Part shown: piece by piece, positions 15,639 to 24,095 of the stretch
Numbering within the stretch: position 1 is the stretch's first letter
How the letters are laid out: every line of letters begins with the position of its first letter
Source: Pseudidiomarina andamanensis
GTDB lineage: Bacteria; Pseudomonadota; Gammaproteobacteria; Enterobacterales; Alteromonadaceae
Direction of reading: 5' to 3'
Assembly (NCBI RefSeq): GCF_009734345.1
Contig: NZ_CP032551.1
Coordinates: forward strand, 180,001 to 212,000
Length of the DNA: 32,000 nt
Notes under the pieces: generated by a model
Database searches by the model: none
Seen by the model: the letters and a program-made list of their open reading frames with translations, nothing else
Told to the model about the DNA's origin: nothing
Program-made: the position numbers and the translations under genes

Positions 15639-18275
15639 ATGGCAAAAGCGTTAGTTATTGTCGAGTCGCCAGCAAAAGCGAAGACAATTAATAAATATTT
15701 AGGGAATGATTTTGTGGTGAAGTCGAGCGTGGGTCACGTTCGCGACTTACCGACAAAATCAACCGCGACCGTCAAAACCAAGCCGCCGGCCGAAGTTCGA
15801 AAAATGACGCCGGAGCAAAAAGAAGCTTATCGGCAAGAGCGTGAGTTCCGAAAATTAGTGGCCCGAATGGGCATTGATCCGCAGCACGGCTGGGAAGCTC
15901 ACTACGAAGTGTTGCCCGGCAAAGAAAAGGTTGTGGCAGAACTGAAAAAGCTGGCAGCGAAAGCTGATGCTATTTACCTCGCAACGGATTTGGACCGCGA
16001 AGGGGAAGCCATTGCTTGGCACTTACGCGAACTGATTGGCGGCGATGACAGCCGGTTCCAGCGCGTGGTGTTTAACGAAATCACCAAAAAAGCCATTCAA
16101 GAAGCTTTCTCTCATCCGGCTGCTTTGAATATTGACCGTGTGAATGCACAGCAAACGCGTCGATTCCTCGATCGTGTTGTTGGCTTCATGGTGTCACCGT
16201 TATTGTGGAAGAAAATTGCGCGTGGGTTGTCAGCTGGGCGCGTACAATCCGTCGCGGTGCGCTTAGTAGTTGAGCGCGAACGCGAAATCAAAGCCTTTGT
16301 ACCAGAAGAATATTGGGATATTTACGCCGATTTATCGACGCAAAATAGTGATGCATTGCGTATGCAGGTGCAAAAGCACCTCGGCAAGACCTTTAAAGCG
16401 AACGATAAGGCCGCTGCCGACGCCGCTGTGGCTGCATTGAAGGGTGCCCAATACAAAGTCATAGACCGCGAAGATAAACCGACTAGCAGCCGTCCCTCGG
16501 CGCCGTTCATTACATCAACCCTGCAACAGGCCGCTAGTACGCGGTTAGGTTTCGGGGTGAAAAAGACCATGATGTTAGCGCAGCGTTTGTACGAAGCGGG
16601 TCATATTACCTACATGCGTACCGACTCAACCAACTTGAGCCAAGAGGCTGTGGCTACTTGTCGAGACTACATTGGCAAGAACTTCGGCAGCGATTATTTG
16701 CCAGCGAAACCGAACGTTTATGGCTCTAAGCAAAATGCACAAGAAGCGCACGAGGCCATTCGTCCTTCAAGCGTCGGCGTGAAGTCAGAAAGTTTGCGTG
16801 ATATGGAACGCGATGCACAGCGTTTGTATGAACTCATTTGGCGCCAATTTGTGGCGTGTCAAATGACGCCAGCTCAATACGATGCAACCACCATTTCCGT
16901 GCAAGCCGGTGATTATGAGCTGCGTGCCCGTGGGCGAGTGTTGCGCTTCCCTGGCTGGACCAAAGTGCAGCCGCCAGCGGGCTCGAAGAATAATGAAGAT
17001 GCAACCTTACCTGATGTGAAAAAAGGTGAAGAATTGGCTCTGCAACAGCTTGACCCGCAGCAACACTTTACCAAGCCGCCGGCGCGCTTTAGCGAAGCTT
17101 CGTTAGTCAAAGAGCTTGAAAAGCGCGGTATCGGCCGCCCATCAACCTATGCGTCAATTATTTCAACCATTCAAGATCGTGGCTATGTGCGGGTAGAAAA
17201 CCGCCGGTTCTACGCGGAGAAAATGGGTGAGATAGTCAATGACCGTTTGGTTGACAACTTCCCGCGTTTATTGAACTACAGTTTCACCGCTGAAATGGAA
17301 CAAGCGCTAGATGAGATTGCCGAAGGGAACCGCAATTGGAAATCGACATTAGATCAGTTCTACGACGATTTCAGTGCGAAATTACAGCAAGCCGAAATGA
17401 CCCCAGAAGAGGGCGGTATGCGCCCGAATCAAATGGTGCTGACCGACATTAAATGTCCGAAGTGCGGTCGTCCGATGGGTATTCGTACCGCATCAACCGG
17501 CGTGTTCTTGGGTTGTTCTGGCTACGAACTACCGCCAAAAGAGCGTTGCACGCAAACCATGAACCTGTTGCCAGGTGAAGAAGCCGTAAGCGTCAAAGAC
17601 GATGACGACGAAGCGGAAACCATGGCGCTGCGCGCGAAAAAACGTTGCCCGAAATGTGGTACGGCAATGGACAGTTATTTAATTGACCAAGAACGCAAAC
17701 TGCACGTGTGTGGTAATAACCCAGCGTGTGATGGCTATGTGGTTGAGCAGGGCGAATTCCGCATTAAAGGTTACGATGGGCCAGTGCTTGAATGTGACCG
17801 TTGTGGCAGTGATATGCAGTTGAAAACCGGCCGTTTTGGTAAGTATTTTGATTGTACCAACAGCGAGTGTAAGAACACCCGTAAGTTACTGAAAAACGGC
17901 CAACCAGCGCCACCAAAAGAAGATCCCGTGCCGTTCCCTGAACTGCCGTGTGAAGACTCGAACGCGTACTTCGTATTGCGTGACGGTGCGTCGGGTGTGT
18001 TTTTGTCAGCGAATACCTTCCCGCGTTCACGTGAAACCCGTGCGGTGAAAGTGAGTGAGCTGAAGCGCTTTAAAGATCGCATTCCAAGTAAGTTCCATTA
18101 CTTAGCGGAAGCGCCTGAAAAAGACGACGATGGCAACGAAGCCATTGTACGTTACAGCCGCAAGAACAAAGAACAGTACGTGATTACCGAAGTGAATGGT
18201 AAAGCGACAGGTTGGCAAGCGTTTTACTCTGGTGGTGTTTGGCGCGTCGAAGCAAAGAAGAATAAACGCAAGTAA
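15639..18275 (+). CDS. topA: DNA topoisomerase I
   Basis: 878 aa. It has the Toprim N-terminus [22 protein letters not shown], the active-site region ITYMRTDS, and C-terminal Cys4 zinc ribbons (CPKCGRPM..., CPKCGTAM..., CDRCGSDM...). Confidence 0.97.
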
Positions 18276-18295
18276 ACAAAGAAGCGAGAACCAAA

Positions 18296-19849
18296 GTGTT
18301 TGACTATCTTAGAGTGACTAATTTACGTGCTTTTAAAGACTCCGGAAAAATAAAACTTAATCCATTGACTATATTGGTGGGGAAGAATAGTTCCGGGAAA
18401 AGTACGTTAGCCCGTGTGTTGCCTTTGTTAAGACAATCTGTAGAGGTAAGTACTCGAGGACCAATTCTATGGTTTGGAAATAAATATGTTGATTTTGGTA
18501 GCTTCGCAACAGCAATAAACTCGAATGCAGATACTAAAGAGATAACTTTTGAAATAGGCTTGAAAACACTCCTAGGGCAATTCGTGTATTTATCTAACTC
18601 GAAAAAAAATAAAGATGATTTTAATCGAGAAATAAAGATTGCGCTCACTCTTTGTGATGATAATAAATCTACTAAATTGAAATCTTTTAGTGTAGTTAGT
18701 GACGATTTATCAATAGATGTAAGAAACACCTCTGGCTCCAAAGCGGTTATTGAATTGAACGGTGTTCAGGTAACTTCCTTATCTGCAACAATTGAAAATG
18801 CAATTGATTTTGGTTTACTTCCAGATTTAGCAATAGTTCTGGAGGGTGAAAGTAAATCTAAGAATTATTATTTTGATGATAATTCAAAATATAAATTAGA
18901 CCTTCTAAAAAAATACTCTGATAGTTATAAATTGAAATTCGAAAGTGAAGAATCTTCAAATAAATTCTATTCGGAGCTATTAGATATTACCGATTTATCA
19001 TTTTTTGGGTATAAATCTAATATAAATTATCTCGCTGAGCGGCATGGCATATTTGAAAGTGCTCTAAAACTAAATGATGAGCAGCTCAGGCAGATATGGA
19101 ATGATTCGGTAATATTAAATATTCCACACCTCATAATGATGGTTAATCATCTAATTCACGAGCAAATGAAGAATATTTCTTATGTTGCTCCAGTCCGAGC
19201 TTTTGCAGAAAGGTACTATAGATTTCAGGACCTGCAAGTAAAAGAACTAGATCATACAGGCTCGAATTTAGCAATGCTGCTTTTGTCGCTAAAAAATAAA
19301 CATTTATCTGATTTCAAAGGCTGGATTAAAAAACATTTAAGGTTTGAAATAAGTGTTGACCCAGTTGGTAATCATTATGCAATAAGCGTAAAACCAGAAG
19401 GCTATAAAAAGTTTCATAATTTAAGCGATATGGGATTTGGATTTTCGCAAATACTTCCAGTTGTTGTATCGATGTGGATGAGTACTAACACGAAGGCATC
19501 TCCGAGATTTAGATATTTTGGTGATGAAACTAATGTCGATAAAATAATAGTAATAGAGCAACCTGAATTGCATTTACATCCAGAGATGCAAGATATTTTA
19601 GCGTCCACAATAGTTAATGTTGCTAGCAATTATAAGAATTTAAGGATTAAGTTCTTAATTGAGACGCATAGTAAAACATTTATCGATGCAATAGGTCGCT
19701 GCATTCGAGCAAAGGAAATAGATTCAGATTCTGTATCCATTAATATCGTTGAGCATGAGGCAATTTCGGATACGTCGGTAGTAAAACAGTCAAGCTTTAA
19801 TGAACAGGGGCAACTGCTGAATTGGCCGCTTGGCTTTTTCTCGTCGTGA
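18296..19849 (+). CDS. ABC/AAA_21-type ATPase (DUF3696-like C-terminus); AriA-like or OLD-family ATPase component of a candidate defence pair
   Basis: GTG start 20 nt after the topA stop. The N-terminus MFDYLRVTNLRAFKDSGKIKLNPLTILVGKNSSGKST carries Walker A (18380-18406). A YVAPVR block follows, then the signature-like LSDMGFGFSQ (19421-19450). Walker B is KIIVIEQPELHLHP (19541-19582) and the H-loop is ETHS (19661-19672). The C-terminal NWPLGFF tail is typical, as I recall, of DUF3696-containing ATPases. About 230 aa of K/N/S-rich insert separates Walker A from the rest. Confidence 0.8.
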   Translation: MFDYLRVTNLRAFKDSGKIKLNPLTILVGKNSSGKSTLARVLPLLRQSVEVSTRGPILWFGNKYVDFGSFATAINSNADTKEITFEIGLKTLLGQFVYLSNSKKNKDDFNREIKIALTLCDDNKSTKLKSFSVVSDDLSIDVRNTSGSKAVIELNGVQVTSLSATIENAIDFGLLPDLAIVLEGESKSKNYYFDDNSKYKLDLLKKYSDSYKLKFESEESSNKFYSELLDITDLSFFGYKSNINYLAERHGIFESALKLNDEQLRQIWNDSVILNIPHLIMMVNHLIHEQMKNISYVAPVRAFAERYYRFQDLQVKELDHTGSNLAMLLLSLKNKHLSDFKGWIKKHLRFEISVDPVGNHYAISVKPEGYKKFHNLSDMGFGFSQILPVVVSMWMSTNTKASPRFRYFGDETNVDKIIVIEQPELHLHPEMQDILASTIVNVASNYKNLRIKFLIETHSKTFIDAIGRCIRAKEIDSDSVSINIVEHEAISDTSVVKQSSFNEQGQLLNWPLGFFSS

Positions 19850-19854
19850 TACTA

Positions 19855-21009
19855 ATGTTAATAGTTCTTAGATCGATTAATTTGATAAACAACAGCCAAT
19901 CTTCTTCTGAAAAGAATGTTGCGTTATATAGAATTATTAATGCTGCGATCGAACAGAAACATGCGGTAATTATCGATGACGTTCCGGAATCTTATAATCC
20001 GAAGAATTTTGGAAGATTAGGGGACTTTGTTGTAGGTCAAATTATCAACATTAGGGATATATATAGCGAAAATGAAGCTATGAAAACTTTGGTAAACAAG
20101 TTTTTAATTGTAGATTTTTCGTTAGATCGATTGGCAATTAATTTAGACAGTTATGGAAATTTGATTGTCGGGTACACTAAGCTTGTTCAATCTAACTTCC
20201 TAGAAAGTAGCAATCTTATTCTTGAAGATTTAAATGATAAAGAGGTTTACTATTCTTTTGTCAATTATTATTGCTATCACAATCGGATAAATAATTTTAA
20301 TTTCAAACTCGATTTCAGAGCTGGTGGTGGTAGTAGTTGTCGACGTCACTTCGATGAATCGATAGATGATAATAGACTGACGATTTGTATAGTTGATAGC
20401 GACAGAAGGCATCCTAATGGGCCATTGGGAAGTACAGCGCAACTATTTAGTAACGTTTTTGATAGAGAACAAGACTTTTGGTATCTCGAGATTCTTCCTC
20501 ATCACGAAGCCGAGAACATTATTCCGATTAGTGTATATAAAAAGGGATATCTCTTGTTGAAAGAGAGAAAGCGAGCACAGCTTCTTGAGTCAATTAAGAG
20601 CGTGTTATATGGCAGCACCGGCTCTGTCCGTTATTTTGATTTTAAGAAAGGTTTGACTGCATACCAATACGGGTTCTTGGAAAGTACCTATGGAGCCTAC
20701 TGGGAACATGTTATAAATGGTTTAGATATCAACGAGTCATGTTTGGGGTGTATAAGAAATGTTTCATCTTTTACTAGGATAAAAAAAGGCTGCTACCATT
20801 GTCCGAATAATACTAATTGCGTATTTATCCAAAGTATTTGCTGCGATGCAGCAACCACCCTTCAGGTAATCAAAAAAAAGCAGGTTGATTTGAATCGATT
20901 ATTTAATAGCGCTATGAGTGAAGCCCCCGCTCAGGTTGATGAGATTCTTAGAATTGGAAAGGTTCTATTTTCGTGGGGCTATGCGTCAAACTTTCAGTCT
21001 GCTTCCTAA
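19855..21009 (+). CDS. Toprim/DUF4435-like putative nuclease with a C-terminal Cys4 zinc-ribbon-like cluster; AriB-like effector candidate
   Basis: A 395-aa track ORF runs from TTG 19822. I prefer ATG 19855, 5 nt after the ATPase stop, but 19822 with a 28-nt overlap cannot be excluded. Three acidic motifs occur in Toprim-like order: IIDDVPE (19969-19989), CIVDSDRRHP with DSD at 20395-20403, and HHEAEN with EAEN at 20506-20517. A CxxC-x13-CxxC cluster is at 20740-20802. The domain assignment is by motif recognition only and is not HMM-verified. Confidence 0.6.
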   Translation: MLIVLRSINLINNSQSSSEKNVALYRIINAAIEQKHAVIIDDVPESYNPKNFGRLGDFVVGQIINIRDIYSENEAMKTLVNKFLIVDFSLDRLAINLDSYGNLIVGYTKLVQSNFLESSNLILEDLNDKEVYYSFVNYYCYHNRINNFNFKLDFRAGGGSSCRRHFDESIDDNRLTICIVDSDRRHPNGPLGSTAQLFSNVFDREQDFWYLEILPHHEAENIIPISVYKKGYLLLKERKRAQLLESIKSVLYGSTGSVRYFDFKKGLTAYQYGFLESTYGAYWEHVINGLDINESCLGCIRNVSSFTRIKKGCYHCPNNTNCVFIQSICCDAATTLQVIKKKQVDLNRLFNSAMSEAPAQVDEILRIGKVLFSWGYASNFQSAS

Positions 21010-21037
21010 AATCGATAACTTTGCAATCGTATGGTTA

Positions 21038-21205
21038 TCATTCGCTATTAGCTACATCTGCGATTAATTCGCTCCTTACTATAACAACCTGATTATCCGC
21101 CTCAAATCTCAATTTCACTTGTTTTCCTTCAATCTTAACGACGCAAATTCTAATTTTATTATCGATCACAATCTCTTCACCGATCTTTCTCGTTAATGTC
21201 AACAT
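21038..21205 (-). CDS. CsrA/RsmA-family RNA-binding protein paralog (55 aa), island-encoded
   Basis: Not in the ORF track because it is shorter than 60 aa. My hand translation gives 56 codons: MLTLTRKIGEEIVIDNKIRICVVKIEGKQVKLRFEADNQVVIVRSELIADVANSE*. A gap-free alignment to E. coli CsrA ([47 protein letters not shown]...) gives 16 identities in residues 1-47. These include the RNA-binding positions L2, L4, R6 and R44, with K7 in place of R7. GGAG lies 10 nt upstream of the ATG. Confidence 0.72.
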   Translation of the reverse strand: MLTLTRKIGEEIVIDNKIRICVVKIEGKQVKLRFEADNQVVIVRSELIADVANSE

Positions 21206-21317
21206 GTCCTTGATTCTCCGTTAAAATAAATATTGTAAAGGAAAGTCTAGGGCATATCGTAAAATTAAGACATCACTACGGAAGTTGTTGGTTATTGTCG
21301 TACATTGTAGTCAACTA

Positions 21318-22178
21318 TTAAAGCGGCGCATGCCAAGTATCACATGCCTGCAAGGTGTTCTGCATCAGCGTTGCTACGGTCATCGGGCCGACGCCGCCTG
21401 GCACTGGGGTAATGTATGAGGCGCGCTGCTCAGCAGTTTCAAACTCAATATCACCAACGAGTTTTCCAGAAGGCAAACGGTTAATACCCACATCAATCAC
21501 TACGGCGCCCGGTTTGACCCATTCGCCAGGAATGAAGTTTGGCTTGCCAACAGCAACGACAAGAACATCAGCACGTTGCACGTGCTCTTTTAAATCATTA
21601 GTAAAGCGGTGACAAACGGTTGTGGTGGCACCAGCCAGCAACAACTCTAGGCTCATTGGGCGGCCAACAATGTTGGAAGCGCCAACCACCACGGCGTTTT
21701 TGCCATGCAAGTCTAAGCCAATGGAATCGAGTAGAGTGATCACGCCGCGCGGGGTGCATGGGCGTAATGCCGGGTTACGTTGGGCTAAACGGCCCATGTT
21801 AAACGGGTGAAAGCCGTCAACGTCTTTGAATGGATTAATGCGCTCGAGAATGGCTTGTGCATCTAAGCCCTGCGGCAATGGCAGTTGCACCAAGATACCA
21901 TCAATTTCAGCATCGTTATTGAGTTGGTCGATTAAGGCTTCGAGTTCTGCTTGTGTGGTTGTGGCTGGCAAGTCGAATGCTTTAGACACAATGCCTACTT
22001 CTTTGCAGGCGTTGCGCTTACTGCCAACGTAAACTGCAGAGGCTGGGTCTTCACCCACCATGACGACGGCAAGGCCGGGGGCGCGAGCACCGGCAGCAAG
22101 GCGTTTGGCAACCCCTTGTTTTACTTCATCACGAACTTGTTGAGCTACTTGTTTACCATCAATACGTTGCGCAGTCAT
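21318..22178 (-). CDS. folD: Bifunctional 5,10-methylene-THF dehydrogenase / methenyl-THF cyclohydrolase
   Basis: [19 protein letters not shown] aligns with E. coli FolD MAAKIIDGKTIAQQVRSEV. I therefore prefer the ATG at the complement of 22176-22178, with AAGGTG upstream, over the GTG at 22190. The motifs [13 protein letters not shown] and [10 protein letters not shown] are present. Confidence 0.94.
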
Positions 22179-22355
22179 TGCTGTGAACACCTTATTCGGT
22201 TAAATGCTGATGTGTCGAGTTCATGGGCTGCTATTTTCGCATGTTTTTTGCTAAGGTTGTAGCGTCGATTAAACGGGTACTGAAATACGGAATGAATAAA
22301 TTTCAGTCAGCCTGTTGGTATTTTCAGCAGTCGGACATTTTGGGCAAAAAAATGT

Positions 22356-22443: not shown

Positions 22444-22520
22444 CGGCGAGTAGCGCAGCTTGGTAGCGCACTTGTTTTGGGTACAAGGGGTCGCTGGTTC
22501 GAATCCAGTCTCGCCGACCA
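22444..22520 (+). tRNA. tRNA-Pro (anticodon UGG)
   Basis: I hand-folded a 77-nt cloverleaf. The acceptor is CGGCGAG/CTCGCCG and the anticodon arm is CTTGT-TTTGGGT-ACAAG. The T-loop is TTCGAAT and CCA is encoded. It is close to E. coli proM. Confidence 0.92.
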
Positions 22521-22538
22521 TTTCTTAAAGTGCGAAAT

Positions 22539-22615
<77 letters not shown>

Positions 22616-22642
22616 TTAAAGCCCTGGCACAACATATGAAGT

Positions 22643-22719
22643 GGTGGCTGTAGCTCAGTTGGTAGAGCCCCGGATTGTGATTCCGGTTGTCGTGGGTTCA
22701 AGTCCCATCAGCCACCCCA
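22643..22719 (+). tRNA. tRNA-His (anticodon GUG) with the encoded extra 5' G(-1)
   Basis: 77 nt. The sequence GGTGGCTGTAGCTCAGTTGGTAGAGCCCCGGATTGTGATTCCGG... is nearly identical to E. coli hisR. CCA is encoded. Confidence 0.92.
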
Positions 22720-22757
22720 TTTCTCTGCTTTTCAGCATTATCTCAAAAATTTGAAGT

Positions 22758-22834
22758 CGGCGAGTAGCGCAGCTTGGTAGCGCACTTGTTTTGGGTACAA
22801 GGGGTCGCTGGTTCGAATCCAGTCTCGCCGACCA
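22758..22834 (+). tRNA. tRNA-Pro (anticodon UGG), second identical copy
   Basis: It is base-for-base identical to 22444-22520. The identity extends 2 nt on each side (22442-22522 = 22756-22836). Confidence 0.92.
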
Positions 22835-22955
22835 TTCTCATGATTCATTCCAACATTGATTCCCTCTTAGCATAGATTTTTCTCGAAAGTTGCGTATAAT
22901 TTCGGCATCTGTTTAAAATTTGCTACAAGCTATAACAACTATAAGAGCTTATTTC

Positions 22956-24095
22956 ATGCTAGAGAACATGCCAAAACAGCATGCTAACCATGCATCTTCA
23001 ACAGAGGAAGGCTTTGGCTTGATGATTTCGGTCATCAGCATGCAACTCATCAATTCTACGCCTGATCAAAGCCAAACCCACATTGAGCATGCTCTCGCGT
23101 TATTGGGGCGCGGAGGCAGCAAAGATCGCTGCTATGTGTTTGAATTTTCAAAAAATCACTCAAAAATGTCGAATACCTACGAGTGGACAAACGACGGTAT
23201 ACAAGCGCATAAACCCGATTTGCAAGATATTCCCGCTGAAATGATGCCGTACTTCTTTGAGCGTATGCTCGAAGACGGACAGATTTTGGTTGATGATGCA
23301 AAAATGTTACCAGAGAGTGCGGGTGGCTTCCGTGACGAGTTATTGCGCGAAAATATTCGCTCGATGATGGCCGTTGGCATGTACATGGAAGGCAAGCTGG
23401 TTGGTTTTGTCGGGTGTGATTTGGTGAATCGCCAGACCCAATGGGTAGAACGCGATATTCGGCAGATGCGTCTCGTCGCCGACATGATCGCCAATACTAT
23501 TGCTCGTCACAAAACCGAAGAACAGTTACGTGCGACAGAAGCACAGCTTTTAGAAGCCAACGCGAAGCTTGCGCAATTGGCGCGCCAAGATAGCTTGACT
23601 GGGTTGGTGAATCGTCGCGGTTTAGATGAATGCCTTGAACATGAATTACGCCGGGCTATTCGAGCGCAGCACCCGTTAACGTTGCTCATGGTTGATGTCG
23701 ATTTCTTTAAGCGTCTTAACGATGAGCACGGTCACCTGCATGGCGACGAGGTATTAAAGGCTGTGGCGGATATCTTACAAAGTCATTTCAAACGCACCGG
23801 TGAATATGTCGCCCGCTTTGGTGGTGACGAATTTATGGTGGTTTGTCCTCAGTCAGAAGTTGACGAGTTAACCGTACAAGCGAAAAAAGTTCTCGCTCGG
23901 GTTAGGTTGTTAGAGAAACGGTTAGGGAGTCCTGTCACCGTGAGTATTGGAGTTCATTCTGATATTCCATCGGCAACGACAACCACCGATGATTTAATGC
24001 GAGAGGTTGATGTTGCGGTATATTTCGCTAAGCAATGTGGCCGTAATCGTATTGAAGTAAATCCAAAGGCACAGAGTAAGTTAGCAACAAGCTAA
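22956..24095 (+). CDS. GAF-domain sensor diguanylate cyclase (GGDEF)
   Basis: The C-terminal GGDEF domain has an intact RFGGDEF (GGDEF at 23820-23834). It is preceded by a coiled-coil linker and SLTGLVNRRG. The N-terminal ~170 aa look GAF-like (YVFEF...YEWTNDG...GKLVGFVGCD). The track ORF starts at TTG 22920. ATG 22956 or 22968 is more plausible. Confidence 0.85.
   Translation: MLENMPKQHANHASSTEEGFGLMISVISMQLINSTPDQSQTHIEHALALLGRGGSKDRCYVFEFSKNHSKMSNTYEWTNDGIQAHKPDLQDIPAEMMPYFFERMLEDGQILVDDAKMLPESAGGFRDELLRENIRSMMAVGMYMEGKLVGFVGCDLVNRQTQWVERDIRQMRLVADMIANTIARHKTEEQLRATEAQLLEANAKLAQLARQDSLTGLVNRRGLDECLEHELRRAIRAQHPLTLLMVDVDFFKRLNDEHGHLHGDEVLKAVADILQSHFKRTGEYVARFGGDEFMVVCPQSEVDELTVQAKKVLARVRLLEKRLGSPVTVSIGVHSDIPSATTTTDDLMREVDVAVYFAKQCGRNRIEVNPKAQSKLATS

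Follow-up and report, generated by a model that had tools for sequence, protein, structure and literature searches.

In Pseudidiomarina andamanensis, a foreign three-gene cassette with a predicted ATPase–nuclease defence pair has taken the place of the pilus-like operon that lies between topA and folD in relatives

Introduction

The described systems closest to the locus analysed here, a three-gene island between topA and folD in a 32-kb window of Pseudidiomarina andamanensis DNA (the window being the whole stretch that was analysed), are immune systems that join an ABC ATPase to a separate effector protein. In PARIS, AriA sequesters AriB, and ATP-dependent sensing releases AriB, which then cleaves tRNA-Lys (PMC11464382). 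In the model put forward for Menshen, the DUF3696 helices of an NsnB dimer clamp the N-terminal domain of NsnC; NsnB itself carries a degenerate Walker B motif and a GxG signature, and Toprim-type NsnC effectors exist (PMC12065111). Similarly, HEC-03 needs both of its genes for defence and is toxic upon induction (10.1101/2024.01.29.577857).

Here we compare the P. andamanensis island with these systems. Our reading, which we consider likely, is that a foreign three-gene cassette has replaced a pilus-like operon between topA and folD, and that its first two genes, encoding an ATPase and a partner protein, form a two-gene abortive-infection-type anti-phage module.

Results

The island (positions 18276-21317 of the window, to which all coordinates refer unless another locus is named) stands out sharply in its composition. 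Its G+C content is 34.7%, as compared to an average of 47.6% over the remaining 3-kb windows of the 32 kb, 229 in number (standard deviation 1.4, minimum 44.5; z = -9.2), and the G+C content at the third codon positions of its genes (0.28, 0.34 and 0.36) is low when set against that of topA (0.52) and folD (0.49). A first-pass annotation of the window had described the drop in composition and a block of exactly three genes, none of them housekeeping, and both descriptions hold: the block contains exactly three credible open reading frames (ORFs), all of them full length. The first (18296-19849, plus strand, GTG start, 33.8% G+C) encodes an NsnB-like ABC ATPase of 517 amino acids, the predicted sensor and scaffold; the second (19855-21009, plus strand, ATG start as in the NCBI record) encodes a partner protein of 384 amino acids, annotated as hypothetical and designated here the P2 family, the predicted nuclease effector; and the third (21038-21205, minus strand, 35% G+C) encodes a CsrA-family RNA-binding protein of 55 amino acids, divergent and foreign, which lies downstream of folD and is co-directional with it. 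The three proteins are exact matches to the P. andamanensis records WP_156265733.1, WP_156265734.1 and WP_156265735.1, respectively. The ATPase and partner ORFs are separate, lying 5 nt apart.

A folD-anchored scan, taking one genome per species, provided about 34 Pseudidiomarina loci in which the site could be compared. In all loci reaching topA, topA and folD were convergent neighbours, at a spacing of 8.07-8.81 kb versus 3.04 kb here. The gap in about 31 other Pseudidiomarina genomes is filled by an 8.1-kb, nine-gene type IV pilus-like cluster of normal G+C content. In the nearest relative (L001, whose flanks share 94% nucleotide identity with those of the window and whose gap has 45-49% G+C), this cluster spans L001:10879-18863, with the same span in L002-L032, and comprises nine co-directional genes: a secretin, a T2SSE ATPase, a T2SSF platform protein, an N-methyl pilin, a TadE-like protein and four unknowns, that is, a type IV pilus or type II secretion system-like operon. 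All the other Pseudidiomarina loci, with the exception of L008, have homologues of these nine genes in this position, and none of the nine lies within the 32-kb window. The island is thus a replacement of the pilus operon and the site is not the synteny breakpoint that had been proposed earlier, because topA and folD are neighbours genus-wide around this conserved operon. Likewise, what had been thought of as an empty site in the relatives (31 or more genomes) is not empty, so that the island was not inserted into vacant DNA. The proposal that the island was horizontally acquired and is variably present did stand, as its genes are absent from 33 of the 34 related Pseudidiomarina loci rather than present in all of them.

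The one other locus of the scan that lacks the pilus genes, L008 (a metagenome-assembled genome of Pseudidiomarina sp. EA13-11), carries a different island of 7.85 kb at L008:10871-18721, with 35-40% G+C. It encodes a 1219-amino-acid YobI-like/KAP P-loop NTPase (PF20693 2.7e-111; PADLOC Tmn 1e-45) and two unknown proteins of 653 and 102 amino acids, and a sequence comparison between it and the window island revealed nothing in common. Its left junction lies just before the ribosome-binding site of the pilus operon and its right junction at the folD stop. Two metagenomic contigs provided further alleles of the cassette itself. L166 (3255 bp) contains a native Pseudidiomarina topA tail, the ATPase, the partner, a convergent CsrA gene and the 3' end of folD, its cassette having a G+C content of 35.4% and its proteins being 55% (ATPase), 35% (partner, E 1e-84) and 45-48% (CsrA) identical to those of the window. 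L167 (1615 bp) holds a third allele, comprising a C-terminal fragment of the ATPase, a partner that is 37% identical and, again, a convergent CsrA gene. The three alleles are about equidistant from one another (35-37% identity for the partner, 44-46% for CsrA and 66-68% for the ATPase C-terminus), and the flanks are ~90% or more identical at the nucleotide level. Alleles this diverged between flanks this similar did not arise by vertical divergence in place; cassettes are being exchanged at the topA/folD locus. With differing cargoes in the window, L008 and L166, the topA/folD site is a recurrent hotspot.

The ATPase matches the Pfam models AAA_15 (1.1e-23) and AAA_21 (3e-16) and, at residues 475-515, DUF3696 (22.7 bits, cut-off 22), which forms its C-terminal helix; its UniRef name is 'GajA/Old nuclease/RecF-like AAA domain'. 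Among the PADLOC profiles, it matches NsnB best (1.3e-47), followed by PDC-M55A (9.2e-44), HEC-03B (6.4e-30) and AriA (1.3e-26). It has no close relative among solved structures, and its profile does not reach the AriA chains in the PDB. A Walker A motif (GKNSSGKS), a Walker B motif (IEQPE), a GFG signature and an ETHS H-loop are invariant across 28 homologues. The Walker B motif, IEQPELHLHP (19547-19582, residues 418-429), holds a glutamine in place of the catalytic glutamate, and this glutamine is likewise invariant in the 28 homologues. In engineered ABC ATPases, exchanging the glutamate for glutamine at the catalytic position traps ATP without hydrolysis. The natural glutamine suggests a switch that is gated by binding and not driven by hydrolysis.

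The partner protein matched no Pfam, NCBIfam or PHROG model, the Pfam scan taking in all 118 members of the family that we aligned, yet it belongs to a large family with 1861 cluster representatives at E<1e-3 (266 at E<1e-30). In the 118-sequence alignment, E124, G159, D183 and E220 are invariant, and D128, G157, D181, P187, E218 and several cysteines are at least 90% conserved. These residues make up the motifs E124-x3-D128, G157-G-G159 and D181-x-D183, and a cluster of cysteines follows (C296, C299, C316, C322 and C329). An AlphaFold2 model built from the 118-sequence alignment (an alignment of 3 sequences gave a predicted local distance difference test score, pLDDT, of only 36) reached a pLDDT of 92.6 and a predicted template modelling score of 0.91. 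In this model, an N-terminal alpha/beta domain (residues 1-115) precedes a Toprim-like core and a cysteine-rich C-terminal part, with E124 placed after strand 120-123 and D181-x-D183 after strand 176-180. We take this placement of the motifs to be the Toprim arrangement, with the extra acidic residue at +4 that is typical of OLD nucleases.

We also compared the partner with known Toprim proteins. In a whole-chain Foldseek search against the PDB, 7 of the 10 best weak hits were OLD-type Toprims (retron Eco2, GajA and the C-terminal regions of class 2 OLD proteins). A profile alignment by hhalign against 52 homologues of phage P2 Old (PF20469) scored 24.5 (P = 0.012) with all three motifs in register; the reversed control scored 12.4 and 25 block shuffles scored 16.6 ± 2.3 (maximum 21.8), placing the real score 3.4 standard deviations above the shuffles. 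The 52-sequence Old alignment was used since the single phage P2 Old sequence was uninformative. Searching the partner profile against PDB sequences returned noise only. The PADLOC model PDC-M55B matched the window partner at 6.4e-4 and 85 of the 118 family members, the best at 6e-13. Taken together, these results make it quite probable that the partner is a Toprim-like nuclease. The initial call of a Toprim-like middle gene thus stands at the level of motifs and profiles only, and the accompanying calls of an ATPase (AAA_15/AAA_21) and a CsrA-like protein (PF02599, below) are confirmed.

The ATPase and the partner are strictly linked. We found them side by side in about 80 loci, which lie in prophages, in a Pf-like phage, on a plasmid and in other islands. 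Wherever a close ATPase occurs (about 50 viral contigs from IMG/VR, 21 contigs from metagenomes and several genomes), the ORF directly downstream of it belongs to the partner family. The pair lies between Q and the holin gene of a lambdoid prophage, at the accessory end of the Pf-like filamentous phage 62-2, where the depositors named the partner 'putative OLD family nuclease', on a B. thuringiensis megaplasmid and in an Enterobacter island. Another Pseudidiomarina, sp. EA11-05, encodes an ATPase that is 39% identical and a 382-amino-acid partner at a different chromosomal site (L190:8001-10763), without a CsrA gene and adjoining HicAB and an AAA_5 (McrB-like) gene with its 879-amino-acid neighbour; the genus thus offers a further defence-island setting for the pair. 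Across about 58 loci that were compared, no third gene and no upstream gene was conserved. DUF3696-type ATPases that are more distant are paired with effector-like proteins of other kinds, among them Ntox17, PLD-like proteins and unknowns, and no DUF4435/AriB protein was found among the partners of these distant ATPases. Such linkage, together with the swapping of partners, marks a sensor ATPase whose toxic effectors can be exchanged.

The Enterobacter loci also displayed a variation of the pair. At L086:7554-8668, and in L087 and L088, the partner gene is split into ORFs of 270 and about 97 amino acids, the split being identical in the three assemblies, and represents either a frameshift that has become fixed or a variant that naturally consists of two pieces. 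In the collection, the Enterobacter ATPase is indexed in 331 blocks.

The third gene product matches the CsrA family (PF02599 3.6e-18, 65.7 bits versus a cut-off of 27) and shares about 31-45% identity with canonical CsrA. Over residues 1-48, its alignment to the structures of RsmE (2jpp) and CsrA needs no gap, and L2, L4, R6, G9, R44 and E46 are kept. Its scores fall below the NCBIfam equivalog cut-offs (52.8 versus 70.1 bits for TIGR00202 and 47.9 versus 73 for NF002469), which rules out a housekeeping CsrA orthologue. The CsrA paralogues of Legionella plasmids and Vibrio phages show only about 40-50% likeness to it. A convergent CsrA gene is found in all three alleles of this Pseudidiomarina-type subclade (window, L166 and L167), and a CsrA-like ORF in none of about 80 other loci encoding the ATPase-partner pair. 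This linkage is the most unusual feature of the cassette and could be functional, the protein being a regulator or brake, or positional. A literature search returned nothing linking CsrA proteins to defence cassettes.

The junctions of the island bear on how it may have arrived. On the left, topA (DNA topoisomerase I; 15639-18275, plus strand) is 93.9% nucleotide-identical to that of L001 as far as 18242 and shows no homology to it beyond this point, and its last ~14 codons (about 18232-18275) are mosaic: the protein tail differs from the YRDG.WEVQEGKKRK of the eight closest relatives, and the tail DNA matches the distant congener L032 at 13/14 nt versus 6-8/14 in near relatives. In the relatives, topA is followed by a GGCGCAGCAATGCGCC hairpin and a T-run, which are missing in the window. 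At L001:18864-19000 and the homologous spans of L002, L007 and L008, downstream of topA, a GC hairpin with a T-run is followed by an inverted repeat, TTGTTAGC...GCTAACAAGG, immediately ahead of the pilus-operon start; this conserved intergenic element is kept in L008 and gone from the window. An imperfect 24-nt tandem repeat (18250-18273 and 18274-18297, 71% identity) straddles the end of topA and might be the relic of a second topA tail. On the right, homology with the relatives resumes exactly at the folD stop (21317/21318), where the G+C content rises sharply, from 0.32 to 0.55 in 60-nt windows at 21320. The left drop in G+C starts at about 18300, and homology with the relatives is already lost at about 18232, within topA. 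Of the two edges first proposed, at the topA and folD stops, the right one is therefore correct and the left one is not, since this boundary lies inside the 3' end of topA. In L166 it is the C-terminus of folD that is altered (L166:3150-3255), reading WHAPQTTQGK before the stop versus WHAPL; junction remodelling is thus seen on the folD side in L166 and on the topA side in the window.

No integrase or transposase ORF is present in the block, a computed search of the junctions for bracketing direct or inverted repeats yielded nothing above chance-level 15-nt matches, and no tRNA or tmRNA attachment site lies at either junction, the nearest tRNA being 1.1 kb away, beyond folD. This agrees with what had been noted by eye, and speaks against an island mobilized by an integrase or transposase. 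Because no integrase is present, the cassette presumably entered through recombination in, or adjacent to, the conserved flanking genes; the mosaic topA tail suggests that the recombination ran through the flanking genes, from a donor that would have been Pseudidiomarina-like and would have carried the cassette already beside topA.

As to expression, no terminator lies in the 20 nt that separate the topA stop from the start of the ATPase gene (18276-18295, plus strand). A promoter and terminator scan found sites no more commonly than in shuffled sequences, none of them terminator-like between topA and the ATPase. A direct reading of the 28-nt spacer between the convergent stops of the partner and CsrA-like genes (21010-21037) revealed a 6-bp inverted repeat, GATAAC (21014-21019) / GTTATC (21034-21039), which is too weak to be called a terminator. 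The right end of the island is an AT-rich leader (21206-21317, minus strand, 33.9% G+C) that runs from the folD stop to the CsrA-like start; an Rfam scan of this leader gave no match, and its folding gave no significant structure (z = -0.42). Judging by the spacing and the lack of terminators, the ATPase and partner genes are probably transcribed by read-through from topA, and the CsrA-like gene from folD.

The flanking genes are conserved. folD (21318-22190, minus strand) encodes a protein with 98% amino acid identity to that of L001 and 97% to that of P. tainanensis, and topA and folD in general are 93-98% identical to the copies of close relatives. Comparisons with solved structures confirmed the identities of astB, tig and clpX, and four tRNAs (Pro, Arg, His and Pro) lie beyond folD at 22444-22834, 1.1 kb from the junction, leaving the blocks on both sides as they were first described. 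Beside the tRNA cluster, a gene encoding a GGDEF-domain protein (22920-24095) is far more divergent than its neighbours folD and tig, with amino acid identities among the relatives of 98, 90, 77 and about 55% and several relatives having no match; it may be another fast-evolving or exchanged gene.

Discussion

In the reading that we favour, the first two genes of the cassette encode a sensor and its toxic effector. The C-terminal DUF3696 helix of the ATPase would keep the partner in an inactive complex, the N-terminal 115 residues of the partner perhaps taking the role of the inactive-PIN adaptor of NsnC. A phage cue would then bring about a nucleotide-dependent rearrangement of the ATPase, by which the partner nuclease would be released or activated, and the freed partner would cut RNA or DNA and stop the infection, i.e., abortive infection. 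The CsrA-like protein may set the expression of the cassette or of host genes, which is the least certain part of this scheme.

Several observations weigh against it. With a glutamine at the position of the catalytic glutamate, the ATPase may bind ATP but hardly hydrolyse it, and therefore the mechanism of PARIS may not transfer directly. The Foldseek hits of the partner in the PDB are not significant (E 0.04-0.5; the best 0.044, with a template modelling score of about 0.2), and the Toprim signal by hhalign is modest (P = 0.012, probability 3.6%). Among the 118 family members, none matches a PADLOC model for AriB, NsnC or the HEC-03 partner, and PDC-M55, the catalogued system that the pair resembles most, is itself a candidate without experimental support or a described mechanism. 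The recombination route, moreover, is based on one short mosaic of 14 codons.

All three genes could alternatively make up one system, in which the CsrA-like protein acts as a regulator or antitoxin-like brake on the pair, or on host targets, until infection, or else provides an RNA-sensing input. This would fit the order of ATPase, partner and convergent CsrA, which is kept in three alleles about equidistant from one another, and the RNA-binding positions R6, R44 and E46, which are kept in all three CsrA proteins; in addition, the toxicity of HEC-03 on induction implies that such pairs need tight control. However, the absence of a CsrA-like ORF from the other loci, about 80 in number, indicates that the pair works without CsrA, and of the three alleles linked to CsrA, at least two share one Pseudidiomarina locus, such that their linkage could be positional. 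Moreover, GGA motifs are lacking at the starts of the ATPase and partner genes, the GGA pair in the CsrA leader of the window is not conserved in L166, and the sample consists of three alleles, two of them from one sequencing series. We therefore entertain the one-system view only tentatively.

Explanations that do without defence fare worse. RecF is an ABC ATPase and RecR a Toprim and zinc-finger protein, and the combination of ABC ATPase, Toprim and cysteine cluster recalls them; the UniRef name of the ATPase includes 'RecF-like', and the pair is found mostly on phages and plasmids. It might thus be a selfish addiction or stabilization module, or a RecF/RecR-like DNA-repair or maintenance pair, that serves mobile elements. 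Yet the pair is found where morons and defence genes classically lie (between Q and the holin gene, at the Pf end that holds accessory genes, beside McrB-like and HicAB genes), the profiles that its ATPase matches best are all those of defence ATPases, the swapping of effectors is typical of immune systems, and the cassette, which is patchy and rich in AT, shows hyper-diverse alleles at one locus, all of which render such a role unlikely. Given that the island is small and devoid of mobility genes, and that Legionella conjugative plasmids and Vibrio phages typically carry CsrA paralogues, it could also be the decaying remnant of a larger mobile element, its genes no longer functional. We find this very improbable: the ORFs are full length with every invariant residue of both families kept, each of the three proteins is found on three contigs in the P. 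andamanensis records, and the structure of the cassette is kept across alleles that are 35-55% identical, which speaks for purifying selection.

Returning to the two-gene defence module as the preferred reading, a bolder extension of it can be drawn, which we regard as rather doubtful. Here, the CsrA-family protein would be a true third component, a post-transcriptional brake or an RNA-level sensor, of an OLD-like, hitherto uncharacterised immune module in which a DUF3696-type ABC ATPase is joined by a Toprim-like nuclease that has no Pfam model, and topA/folD would be a recombination-driven hotspot, where hyper-divergent cassette alleles and other defence genes displace a type IV pilus operon that would likely be a receptor for phages or a machine for DNA uptake.

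As a category, defence cassettes in hotspots are expected; what merits an experiment in each case is the uncharacterised family of effectors, the ATPase with its native 'EQ', the linkage to CsrA and the displaced pilus operon. If the proposed function is true, an experimentally untouched family would be added to ABC-ATPase-plus-nuclease immunity (OLD, Gabija, PARIS, Septu, Menshen and HEC), with a partner family of more than 1800 representatives that is without a Pfam model or a solved structure. The natural glutamine of the ATPase would offer a test case for gating by ATP binding alone, and the tie between a CsrA-type protein and such a cassette would amount to a regulatory layer of a new kind. 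Furthermore, the locus shows that a site flanked by core genes is able to give up a whole pilus operon for alternative defence cargo without an integrase, which bears on the origin of defence hotspots in small marine genomes.

In terms of its setting, the locus resembles other core-gene-flanked defence hotspots, which likewise hold unrelated low-G+C cargoes and divergent alleles at one site between housekeeping genes; it differs in that its ancestral occupant is a pilus operon, lost from the site on replacement. Mobile CsrA/Rsm paralogues are known from Legionella conjugative plasmids and Vibrio phages, and here such a paralogue is linked to a defence-like pair, not to a conjugative element.

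As to the pair itself, OLD classes 1-3 have the ATPase and the Toprim fused, as opposed to the two ORFs seen here. HEC-03, a validated system of an ABC ATPase and a VapC-like PIN protein, has a related ATPase (HEC-03B 6.4e-30) and shares the two-gene logic. Membership in HEC-03 was rejected, as no member of the partner family matches its partner model and Pfam detected no PIN domain. Menshen provides the best match to the ATPase, NsnB, which likewise ends in a DUF3696 helix and carries a degenerate Walker B motif and a GxG signature (PMC12065111), and the partner is, in its predicted structure, like NsnC in that an N-terminal alpha/beta domain is followed by a nuclease-like domain. The locus is nonetheless not a Menshen system, as no NsnA (ParB-DUF262) is encoded upstream, where topA lies at a distance of 20 nt, the same being true of L166. 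As for an effector of the NsnC type, with an inactive-PIN domain at its N-terminus, the search of the partner by whole-chain Foldseek gave no PIN match, and no NsnC model was matched.

PARIS, a class 4 OLD system, is similar in placing an AAA_15/AAA_21 ABC ATPase beside a separate protein of ~35-45 kDa with Toprim-type acidic motifs. It is often found on phages and satellites, and its nuclease, sequestered and freed on sensing, is the likely mechanistic template for the pair (PMC11464382). Membership in PARIS was rejected on the basis of the 118 partner-family members, none of which matches DUF4435 (PF14491) or a Toprim Pfam model at E<=1 or the PADLOC AriB model at E<=0.01, and the ATPase of the window is nearer to NsnB than to AriA, with its DUF3696 tail and IEQPE Walker B motif.

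The nearest catalogued relative is PDC-M55, a PADLOC candidate released with Payne et al. (10.1101/2024.01.29.577857) and similarly composed of two genes, an ATPase and a partner; a literature search returned no mention of it. The matches to PDC-M55 are partial, covering residues 281-516 of the ATPase and 151-270 of the partner, and it has no CsrA gene; due to this partial coverage, the pair would represent a sister or divergent family and not a clear member. Overall, our analysis points to the ATPase-partner pair as a divergent relative of the candidate PDC-M55; the pair would work in the manner of class 4 OLD/PARIS and of NsnB/NsnC of Menshen.

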